Assembly (NCBI RefSeq): GCF_036507355.1
Contig: NZ_AP027877.1
Length of the DNA stretch: 64,000 bases
Source of the DNA: Escherichia coli
GTDB lineage: Bacteria > Pseudomonadota > Gammaproteobacteria > Enterobacterales > Enterobacteriaceae
Strand: one strand, 5' to 3'
The position numbers are program-made. Of the stretch, positions 27,001 through 30,000 are shown piece by piece (positions within the stretch are counted from its first letter, which is position 1; each line of letters starts with the position of its first letter).

Positions 27001-30000
27001 ATAAGGCGTGTGTGACATTTTTTTGGGGTTAAGCGTCTCGTATTGAAATACTTCGAATTGATATTCAGACATTTCTGCCCATGTTTGAATTTTATTGTAT
27101 CGAGAGAGTGTCGTAAAGGCTTTAACTTGCTTATAACATTCTTTTTGGAATTCTTGCTGATATTTTAATATGTCGTTGTATGAAAGATTGGTTATCCTGG
27201 CCTCTAAAAATTTAATTATTGTCGAAGCAATTTCCGCTTTTGCTCGTAAAAAGTTGTCATTAATGGTTAATAATGTTGAAAATAAACCTTCGATTTGTTT
27301 GTCAAGATCTTGTTCGTCTTTATATAATTTTGGGGTAGGGTGTTCTTTATGTGAAAAAATAGTGTCACCTAAATTTACGTCAGTGAAATTTATATTAAGC
27401 AGATCTTCGAAATAAAACCTTGACAAGGTTAGAACGAACCCGGACAGATTCTGTCCTGTCATATTGAAATCAATAAAGTTGGTTCCGGCAAAGACTTTCA
27501 TCCTGTTTTTATTTTCACTGTGCTCAATATATAACTTCGTCATTTTTTGATACAGGCTTTGAATATCTTTTATATTGGTCGGTAAGTCAGCTCGTTGTTC
27601 AGCAATAAAATTAGTATCTGAAAACATGGTTTGGACACTGAATCTTACTGGTATTCCCTCTTCTACGCTAATTTTAGTTATGATTGCCTTGTCGGGTTTA
27701 GGATTAGCGACAACAATGATTCGACATTCAGCACTTTTGTTCTTTTCGTATCTAATGTTATTAATTTGATTAAGTATTTCCTGTGCCTGCCGCGTAAGTG
27801 GTGTCGAACTTATCGATTCAATGTTAGTAATAAGACTTACAAGTTGAGCCACAACTTTTGAGTAGTCTGCATCTGTATATTTGGTGTTCGTGCGGCACGC
27901 ATAAATTTGTGGGAGGTGTTGCCGCGCTAAATCATATTGTTCAGGGTTGTATCCTTCTCCAGAGAATGTGGAATTAATGGGTTGTTGTTCTTCCCGATTA
28001 TCACAAGGCCACATCGGTGTGTCTGGTGTTTTAACATTGTCGGTATCTGTTGTGCGGTTATAAATATCGCCGTGATATGTATTTATCATACCTGGGGTAA
28101 AGTCAATTGACATAACATTCCTTATTCATCATCTGTTTTATGCTAAGATTTTTAAATTGGATAATTAGAGCAGGAATGGATTTTCTTCTACGCACAATAA
28201 ATATCATGCGTCATATCTTCCTGATATAATTACCTTTGACTTCCCTTTTATCTCCACCCGGTAATATTTGTGTATAAAAAAGGGCATTGATAGTATCGTA
28301 AAGGAAAACGTTAACAACTATCAAAAAGCGCTCATTTTAAAAAGTTATGATGTTCTCCGATAGTGTGTGAAATGATATTTTTGTGATGTTTTAGATGTGT
28401 AATAATAAAATGGGTTAAGGTATCTTATAATTATTGAATAATTTGTTGTGTAAAGCACTGATAAATCATAATTCAGTACGTCTTTAAACTGCTGCACTGT
28501 ATCGCTGATAACTAAGCAGCTCACTGATACACCATGCTGGACGCGATAATTGGAATCTCACGCAGGGAGTAATGTGTAAATAGCAAAATCGCCTGATGCG
28601 CTACGCCTGTCAGGCCTACAAATAACATACAATTTATCGAGTTTTCATAACTTTGTAGGTCGGATAAGACGCGCCAGCGTCGCATCCGACATAAATAAAG
28701 CGCACTTTTCTAACAACCTGTGGGGGGGATATAGCCGCTTTATTTCAGGCGATTACCCGCTTCATCAACCACTTTCTCGCCATCTTCCTTGGAGAATGCG
28801 CCTTTTTGCGCATCTGGCAGAATTTCCAGCACGACTTCTGAAGGGCGGCACAGACGAGTTCCCAGCGTCGTCACCACAATCGGGCGATTAATCAGAATCG
28901 GGTGCTGAAGCATAAAGTCGATTAACCGATCGTCAGTATATTTATCTTCCGCAAGGCCCAGCTCCTCATACGGCTCGACGTTTTTACGCAGCAACGCGCG
29001 TACGGAAATCCCCATATCGGCAATGAGTTTGACCAGTTCATCGCGCGTTGGCGGAGTTTCCAGATAATGGATAATGGTCGGTTCTGTGCCGCTGTTGCGG
29101 ATCATCTCCAGCGTATTACGCGACGTGCCGCAGGCCGGGTTGTGATAAATGGTAATGTTGCTCATATCATTATCTCATTACAAAGTGAAAGAGAGACGTA
29201 GCGCCAGCGCCACCAGCGTTACAAACCAAAGCGGATAAGTCAAAAACATATATGGTTTAACGAATGCGTATGTGCAGAGGAAGGTAATAGGTGTGAATTT
29301 TGAGTTGGCTATTCATTTGAAAGGAGGTCTGAATCAGGACGTAAAAAAACCGACTTCGCGTCGGTTTTTTTACTCTTCAGCCCTGAGTTGGTGGCTCTGG
29401 CTGGAGTGAGAATGCCATCATCTAACGCATCAATACTAATACCATACTGAAACTATTGCAAGGACATGCTGGTTTTATAACCTGAATATACTGTATGATT
29501 ATCCAGTTAGCTCTGAGGCATTTTCACTCTGGCAATGCGCATAAACGCTTTCAAAGTCCTGATCAGTGGTACGGGTGGTGCCGTTAACTGATGCTCTGGC
29601 CGGAGTGAGAATGCCATTATCTAACAATAGGGCATGCGCCGTGACAGGCGATGGATGAGTAAGCGGATGCATTCTCACTCCATCGTATGGAGAACACGGG
29701 TGATTGATAAAGCAATCATCGTTCTTGGGGCGTTAATTGCGCTGCTGGAACTGATCCTCTTTCTGCTTCAGCTTCTGAACTGATAGCGGAAACGTAATTA
29801 AGGGCTAAGAGCACACTACTCTTAGCCCTTTAACATTTAACGCATGGTCACGAACTCTTCTGCCGCCGTTGGGTGAATGGCGACGGTATTATCGAAGTCT
29901 TTTTTGGTTGCGCCCATCTTCAGTGCCACCGCGAAGCCCTGCAACATTTCGTCCATACCAAAACCAATGCCGTGAATACCGACAATCTTCTCTTCCGGTC

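Follow-up and report, generated by a model that had tools for sequence, protein, structure and literature searches.

Organization of the Locus

The interval between gor and arsC in a 64,000-nt stretch of Escherichia coli DNA (RefSeq assembly GCF_036507355.1, contig NZ_AP027877.1; henceforth, the window) encodes the small toxin DinQ and a single agr antisense small RNA. The window is E. coli DNA that is inverted with respect to K-12 and colinear with it from gadA to acpT except for a few insertions and replacements. Around the interval, the order is yhiS (26890-28113, minus strand), arsC (28740-29165, minus strand), agr (29343-29425, minus strand), dinQ (29506-29836, plus strand), and gor (29837-31189, minus strand), and the gap from arsC to the dinQ coding sequence (which starts at 29700) is 534 nt. 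BLASTN comparison with the K-12 reference (NC_000913 3644000-3652000) resulted in three blocks: window positions 29327-33488 match K-12 prlC through agrA (96.4% identity), positions 29229-29444 match agrB and its downstream flank and stop 38 nt short of the start codon of arsR (91.8% identity), and positions 27404-29226 match the last 49 nt of arsB followed by arsC and yhiS. All population counts given here refer to a set of 5426 complete E. coli genomes. The interval is at least 99% identical in only two of them, and the closest, strain 48 from a deer (99.2% identity), is a complete genome with the same layout as the window.

The Single agr Gene

The Rfam model RF02891 (AgrB) has one full-length match in this region, at 29341-29425 on the minus strand, with a score of 92.2 bits compared with a gathering score of 40. 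Together with alignment and folding, this match defines an 83-nt antisense RNA gene (29343-29425) in the agrA position, that is, proximal to dinQ. The predicted fold (z-score -4.0) combines a 5' antisense part that is single-stranded with an internal hairpin and a terminator. The antisense segment (29394-29426, minus strand) was recovered by repeat search as a 33-nt direct repeat of the dinQ target at 29593-29625 with two mismatches and, because agr is transcribed from the opposite strand, it is complementary to dinQ as RNA. The target 32-mer is found at exactly two sites in the window, and none is expected based on 100 shuffles. A first-pass annotation of the window had described one agr unit outside of the dinQ transcript, repeating the dinQ leader with two mismatches and followed on the minus strand by a terminator hairpin. 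Both observations were borne out: the repeat is 33 nt long, and the intrinsic terminator (29341-29373, minus strand) has a 14-bp stem (29341-29354/29360-29373), a 5-nt loop, and a T run. This terminator is symmetric and therefore bidirectional.

The agr promoter is predicted at 29433-29461 on the minus strand, with a -35 element TTGCAA (29461-29456), a 17-nt spacer, a -10 element TAGTAT (29438-29433), and a transcription start at 29425. This prediction was made by reading the sequence in alignment with the K-12 agrA and agrB promoters and annotated starts; the K-12 starts have been mapped (PMC3567139). In a consensus promoter and terminator scan of the window, the agr promoter scored below threshold (8 of 12 matches) and the agr terminator, in which A and T runs pair, was not flagged; both elements were placed by alignment to K-12 in combination with folding.

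When agr units of several genomes are aligned, the window agr, across terminator, RNA body, and promoter, is 100% identical over 165 nt to the proximal copy of O157, and past its terminator comes the DNA that lies downstream of the distal, agrB-position copy. The sequence points to a crossover within about 16 shared bases that are located at the terminator or just past it. Because a crossover at this place leaves the proximal gene and its promoter joined to the distal flank, the positional agrB is the lost copy. The alignment with the K-12 gor-arsC interval, which the first-pass annotation had proposed as a check, placed the deletion junction described later, and together with the agr alignments it identified the retained gene as the dinQ-proximal, agrA-position copy. 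Two tandem agr genes would then have collapsed into one, comprising the proximal gene with its promoter and, after it, the flank of agrB.

The agr gene of strain 48 (L002 2140-2260) has five differences from window positions 29341-29440 and is a mosaic, with a distal-like terminator and a -10 element TAGCAT in place of TAGTAT, which suggests ongoing exchange between agr copies.

The dinQ Transcript and Its Leader

Two overlapping LexA-box-like sites, read from the sequence, cover the dinQ promoter at 29482-29506 on the plus strand (CTG-N10-ATG at 29482-29497 and CTG-N10-CAG at 29491-29506); the K-12 locus is reported to have two LexA operators (PMC3567139). The numbering of the transcript was transferred from K-12 (PMC5066626) by alignment, and the first 30 nt of dinQ are identical to those of K-12. 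On the plus strand, the primary transcript (+1 to +331) corresponds to 29506-29836, the +44 processing site to 29549, element 1 (U16-C28), the partner of element 2 while the mRNA is in its inert +1 form (PMC5066626), to 29521-29533, and element 4, which includes the Shine-Dalgarno sequence GGAG (29689-29692), to 29687-29692. Alignment and repeat search place the agr target (nt 88-119, with the repeat reaching nt 120) at 29593-29624 (29625 for the repeat). Element 2 (29599-29611) and a variable 9-nt patch (AATGCCATT, 29610-29618) lie within this target. A terminator scan and an inverted-repeat search identified the dinQ terminator hairpin at 29800-29830 (plus strand), which is common to the convergent gor gene.

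The four leader elements are conserved and, as modeled, can adopt the mutually exclusive pairings 1:2, 2:3, and 3:4 in the region of the Shine-Dalgarno sequence. In RNAfold predictions for the window, nt 1-28 pair with nt 94-120 in the +1 leader (stem S1) and nt 97-109 pair with nt 164-176 in the +44 form (stem S2), matching the published S1 and S2 stems. The two arms of S2, on the element 2 side (29602-29614) and on the element 3 side (29669-29681; element 3 itself is 29672-29683), form a perfect 13-bp stem in the window compared with 9 bp in K-12, and S1 is more continuous than in K-12, with a minimum free energy of the +1 leader of -91.0 versus -76.2. The first-pass annotation had noticed an inverted repeat in the leader (29603-29618 against 29667-29681) and proposed that it could sequester translation signals. 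The repeat exists, with exact arms at 29602-29614 and 29669-29681, but its proposed role is the reverse of the known one, as it is the published duplex of sequences 2 and 3, which exposes the ribosome site (PMC5066626). In K-12, this 2:3 duplex in the +44 mRNA frees the Shine-Dalgarno sequence, the 3:4 hairpin hides the ribosome site, and agr restores the 3:4 hairpin (PMC5066626).

The 3' arm of the SL3 hairpin (window 29609-29633; dinQ nt 104-134 in five other loci) covaries with the patch, so that three alleles retain the hairpin (arms AUGCC..GGCAU, UCUUAU..AUGAGA, and GUC.GUCA..UGAGAC). Separately, the substitution G108A in the O157 allele weakens SL3, S1/S2, and the agr pairing together.

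Pairing of agr with dinQ

The patch in the window dinQ is AATGCCATT, in contrast to AGAGTTCTT in K-12, and the retained agr carries AATGCCATC. We scored each combination over 32 positions as Watson-Crick pairs, G-U pairs, and mismatches and computed the duplex energy. The window dinQ with the window agr gives 30, 1, and 1, respectively (-56.1 kcal/mol), which is the equal of K-12 dinQ with agrB (31, 0, and 1; -56.2 kcal/mol) and far better than K-12 dinQ with the inactive agrA (25, 4, and 3; -40.7 kcal/mol) or the window dinQ with K-12 agrB (26, 0, and 6; -39.3 kcal/mol). The sole true mismatch, dinQ C96 opposite an agr A, is kept in all alleles seen. In K-12, agrB (30 of 31 positions complementary) represses dinQ and agrA (25 of 31) does not (PMC3567139, PMC5066626). 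Judged by complementarity, the retained agr is the cognate of the window dinQ allele, pairing with it as well as K-12 agrB pairs with its own target. Because the retained agr matches the local target allele, DinQ is expected to be still repressed, and the sequence indicates that it is probably held in check. The first-pass annotation had reasoned that the lost copy might be the repressing one and that DinQ might be less tightly controlled. The positional agrB has indeed been lost; however, the window dinQ allele pairs with the copy that remains, and the difference between -56.1 kcal/mol for this pair and -39.3 kcal/mol for the window dinQ with K-12 agrB speaks against relaxed control.

A working scheme for the window locus can be taken over from the K-12 experiments. 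Transcription of LexA-controlled dinQ would give the inert +1 mRNA, with element 1 occupying element 2 and elements 3 and 4 concealing the ribosome site. Once 43 nt are removed, the +44 form would result, in which elements 2 and 3 pair, here in the 13-bp stem 29602-29614/29669-29681, and the ribosome site is exposed. The constitutive 83-nt agr RNA would pair with leader nt 88-119, by which element 3 is freed and the ribosome site re-closed, and this pairing would also create an RNase III substrate.

The DinQ Peptide

The dinQ coding sequence (29700-29783, plus strand) has a GUG start and encodes 27 aa (MIDKAIIVLGALIALLELILFLLQLLN), a small hydrophobic single-helix toxin preceded by a long structured leader. 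Of the 27 residues, 26 are the same as in K-12. The exception, which had been missed in the first-pass annotation, is R20L, caused by a G to T change at base 29758 that converts the codon at 29757-29759 from CGC to CTC. A 51-mer with the Leu codon is found in none of the 5426 genomes, the corresponding 51-mer with the Arg codon is found in 5258, and DinQ is invariant in 15 other sampled genomes, including those with promoterless loci. Arg20 belongs to a polar patch (Glu17/Arg20/Gln24) of the transmembrane helix that has been proposed to contact membrane proteins (PMC3567139). R20L could mark a toxin with altered activity.

Loss of arsRB

ORF calling in the window revealed no arsR or arsB ORF between arsC and dinQ, in agreement with the first-pass annotation, which had found an arsC without room for arsR and arsB before dinQ and had suggested a deletion. 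The arsC gene (28740-29165, minus strand) is an intact ORF for a glutaredoxin-dependent arsenate reductase of 141 aa with 98.1% identity to K-12 arsC; 138 of the 141 residues are those of K-12 ArsC, including the HNPACGTSR motif with Cys12. With regard to the rest of the arsRBC operon, arsR and its promoter are absent, and so is the arsB efflux permease gene save for about 16 codons. The K-12 segment that has been lost is 1686 bp long (NC_000913 3648491-3650176) and comprises the ars promoter -10 element, arsR, and the first 413 or so codons of arsB. What remains of arsB is a 3' remnant of 49 nt (29178-29226, minus strand), or about 16 of 429 codons, which translates into about 15 codons and the stop (FVTLVALALRLSFTL*); BLASTN similarity to K-12 arsB stops at position 29226. 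A hydrophobic frame had been read in the first-pass annotation as the last 45 or so codons of arsB, ending about 13 nt before arsC. An arsB tail is present, but only 49 nt of the frame derive from arsB, and the exact distance from its stop to the arsC start is 12 nt, the same as in K-12. The other approximately 29 codons of the frame were rejected as part of arsB; they are agrB-arsR intergenic DNA that is read through by chance, as the DNA homology to arsB ends at 49 nt.

The deletion junction contains two filler bases (29227-29228; ACAAAC-CA-AAGCGG at 29221-29234) and is followed by the former agrB-to-arsR intergenic DNA, which adjoins the 3' end of the distal agr copy (29229-29340, minus strand), which is 96.4% identical to K-12 DNA downstream of agrB. 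The identical junction, with the same filler and three substitutions within 20 nt, is found in strain 48, in the B2 avian strain APEC 729, and in ST1193. Neither the filler nor the three adjacent substitutions are present in any of the six intact arsB tails examined. Because the junction, filler, and substitutions are common to the window and B2 and absent from intact arsB, the deletion is identical by descent, and an independent recurrence in the window lineage, which we also considered, is ruled out by the shared filler and substitutions. The deletion is also old, given a divergence of 11% between the noncoding remnants in the window and in B2. Moreover, arsC and dinQ are neighbors in 1109 of the 5426 genomes, and the loss of arsRB has been published for B2 and some phylogroup E isolates, in which only arsC lies between gor and slp (PMC5923176). 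Loss of arsRB is, therefore, an already published polymorphism rather than a notable event of the window genome. Isolates without arsRB have arsenite minimum inhibitory concentrations of <128 mg/L (PMC5923176) and, by analogy, the arsenite tolerance of the window strain should be lower.

The -35 element of the ars promoter, TTGACT (29238-29243), assigned as a candidate by consensus, has been kept and now lies 17 nt ahead of TGT-AACGCT, forming a candidate hybrid promoter, TTGACT-17-TGTAACGCT. The pN/pS ratio of arsC is 0.15 in comparison with arsC of arsRB-less B2 genomes, and the comparisons span 0.12-0.24. By its sequence, arsC appears promoter-poor after the deletion yet intact and constrained, and it may be driven by the hybrid promoter or by read-through from agr. 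A different loss of ars regulation is seen in O111:H8 strain 8E (L019 150-502), in which arsR is annotated as frameshifted and arsB and arsC are kept.

Alleles and Copy Number across E. coli

Using allele-specific 50-mers to count patch alleles among the 5426 genomes, we found that the window-type patch (AATGCCATT) is the commonest, with 1921 genomes, followed by the K-12-type patch (AGAGTTCTT) with 1682, the B2-type patch (ATAGTCGTC) with 418, and the O157-type patch (AATACCATT) with 310. Eight sampled genomes combine the window-type patch with a dinQ target that is intact. In all eight, dinQ is matched by the proximal agr, and the distal agr, present in four of them, is K-12-agrB-like and mismatched. 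A 251-nt segment with the proximal agr and a dinQ target bearing the window-type patch is at least 99% identical in 1669 genomes. The proximal copy also fits best in B2-type genomes, where both differences are G-U pairs.

The spacer between the two agr copies is present in 3842 of the 5426 genomes, leaving 1584 with at most one agr copy. One-copy loci are found in unrelated backgrounds, namely, the window, the B1-like genomes KKa014, GZEC065, and O111:H8, and B2, and each shows full or almost full identity to the proximal copy of a relative with two copies; for example, KKa014 is 100% identical over 251 nt to E2865 and E24377A. Because unrelated one-copy loci each match the proximal copies of their relatives, recurrent collapse is favored over an ancestral single copy. 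Deletions of another kind, 199 bp long, have occurred independently between the agr and dinQ repeats in ST1193 (L004 2194-2225) and CFIAFB20190157 (L022 902-933). With such a deletion, neither promoter is left and dinQ lacks its first 87 nt, so that a promoterless toxin ORF results. The ST1193-type fusion is present at 99% or higher identity in approximately 808 genomes, an approximate count because the left flank of the query was too long and only the band of at least 99% identity is informative. In most arsRB-less B2 genomes, the dinQ/agr locus seems to be dead.

In the papers searched, agrA is treated as a degenerate copy, and some strains are described with agrA between dinQ and agrB (PMC3567139; PMC8594479). 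No description of an allele-dependent swap between agrA and agrB was found in these papers. We tentatively propose, with the case for and against nearly balanced, that across E. coli the agr genes form matched specificity alleles together with the dinQ patch and the SL3 3' arm, so that agrA and agrB are alternative antitoxins and not one functional and one decayed gene. Under this proposal, the proximal, agrA-position gene would be the working antitoxin for the commonest dinQ allele, in about one-third or more of the genomes, and K-12, where agrB is the cognate, would represent one state among several. Gene conversion between the 33-nt repeats would keep the patches identical, and the same repeats would give rise to the recurrent 199-bp and 231-bp deletions.

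Alternative Explanations

We consider it highly probable that the interval is an old natural gor-dinQ-agr-ars haplotype and not a fresh lesion, in which arsRB have been deleted, the agr tandem has collapsed with its cognate copy kept, and DinQ remains repressed. Several points weigh against this interpretation. The structure of the locus by itself fits either a collapse or an ancestral one-copy state, and the case for collapse depends on the proximal copies of two-copy relatives. Repression is deduced from complementarity and computed duplex energy, and the longer S1 and S2 stems of the modeled leader could lower the accessibility of the target to agr or alter processing. Finally, R20L is private to the window, so the toxin may differ in behavior from K-12 DinQ.

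If the repressing agrB had been lost, DinQ would be under-repressed, and SOS induction would depolarize the membrane more readily. In K-12, agrB alone represses (PMC3567139), and it is the positional agrB that is missing here. A K-12-like ENA metagenome contig (L025, 2552-3198), the one hit at 100% identity, with a K-12-type dinQ and only an agrA-type unit indicates that such a mismatched state can be assembled, although we set this contig aside as evidence because it is a possible assembly collapse of tandem agr genes and one of its ends is chimeric. However, the patch of the window dinQ is not the K-12 allele, it pairs with the retained agr and mismatches K-12 agrB (26 of 32 positions), and the proximal-cognate arrangement is found in at least 1669 genomes, all of which make under-repression improbable. 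An assembly artifact, in which a 231-bp tandem repeat was collapsed or the arsRB gap resulted from a misjoin, is less probable still, to the point of being hardly credible. Short reads can merge agrA with agrB, between which more than 50 bases are identical in K-12, and contig L025 may be such a case. In O157, the nearest relative with two copies, however, the copies differ at many positions across the RNA body and terminator, and the approximately 16 bases shared at the crossover would not suffice for a k-mer collapse. In addition, the layout is that of the complete strain 48 genome, and the arsC-dinQ adjacency recurs in 1109 complete genomes.

That the single agr represents the ancestral state before duplication is unlikely, but it is the strongest of these competitors. 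A distal-type 3' flank combined with a proximal-type promoter fits either history, and the inter-agr spacer is lacking from 1584 of the 5426 genomes. Against an ancestral single copy, one-copy genomes from unrelated backgrounds match the proximal copies of two-copy relatives, and repeat-mediated deletions recur at this locus, as seen in the agr/dinQ fusions of ST1193 and CFIAFB20190157. Hence, an old haplotype with a collapsed agr tandem and a retained cognate antisense RNA is the reading that we prefer.

Implications

The K-12 model, with agrB as the antitoxin and agrA as a relic, appears to cover no more than about 31% of complete E. coli genomes, which is a caution that the K-12 antitoxin assignment should not be transferred to other strains by gene position. 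An allele-dependent cognate copy offers a testable reason for the persistence of agrA. The locus provides a natural series of compensated changes in a toxin leader, an antisense RNA, and an internal hairpin for the study of coevolution with a trans-acting antisense RNA. By itself, the loss of arsRB predicts only lower arsenite tolerance, which is already documented. What is new here is modest and is confined to the R20L substitution, which is private to the window, and to the way in which agr and dinQ alleles match across E. coli.

Flanking Regions

Close to the interval, yhiS (26890-28113) is an intact 407-aa ORF without a match to any NCBIfam family, and the K-12 copy is split by IS5. Downstream of arsC, at 28612-28701, are palindromic elements resembling repetitive extragenic palindromes, for which the Rfam matches naRNA4 and ES036 are below threshold. 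Escherichia Gor proteins all fall into one 90% cluster. Farther away, an IS1 copy with InsA and InsB frames (3745-4506) between gadA and gadX is an insertion relative to K-12, and a 10.3-kb segment with the chu locus (15063-25389) is absent from K-12; the heme receptor gene chuA (21003-24253) is interrupted by an insertion sequence of the IS3 family at approximately 22131-23390. At 51641-58203, a sugar-utilization cluster replaces K-12 rhsB-yhhH-yhhI and comprises a class II aldolase, an FGGY kinase, galactitol-type phosphotransferase system components IIC and IIA, and a GntR regulator.

Comparison with Known Systems

The closest known system is K-12 dinQ-agrAB (PMC3567139; PMC5066626; RF02891), which occupies the same site between gor and ars. 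The two have in common a 27-aa peptide with a GUG start, LexA boxes, a 331-nt transcript, identical elements 1, 3, and 4, the 83-nt antisense architecture with a 32-nt trans-pairing segment, an agr that is divergent from and does not overlap dinQ, and the conserved C-A mismatch (dinQ CCGG vs. agr CCAG). The window differs in having one agr, in the agrA position, instead of two, in S1/S2 stems that are 4 bp longer, in R20L, and in the patch and SL3 3' arm (AATGCCATT/AAUAGGG vs. AGAGTTCTT/AAUGAGA in K-12).

With respect to ars, the window resembles the arsC-only haplotype of B2 and of some phylogroup E isolates (PMC5923176), with which it shares the junction, the arsB tail, the position of arsC alone between gor/dinQ and yhiS/slp, and a nearby chu locus. 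Unlike in the B2 haplotype, the flanks of the window are O157/K-12-like, its arsC is 98% identical to that of K-12 and 95% identical to that of B2, and its dinQ/agr pair is of the window-type allele. Most B2 genomes have additionally lost dinQ and agr promoters by the 199-bp repeat-mediated deletion.

A more general likeness, drawn in PMC3567139, is to tisB/istR-1, where a LexA-controlled toxin mRNA requires 5' processing for translation and a divergent, constitutive, trans-pairing antisense RNA triggers RNase III cleavage. The two systems have no sequence relationship, and they differ in that IstR-1 acts by blocking a standby site for the ribosome and Agr by closing a Shine-Dalgarno hairpin again.

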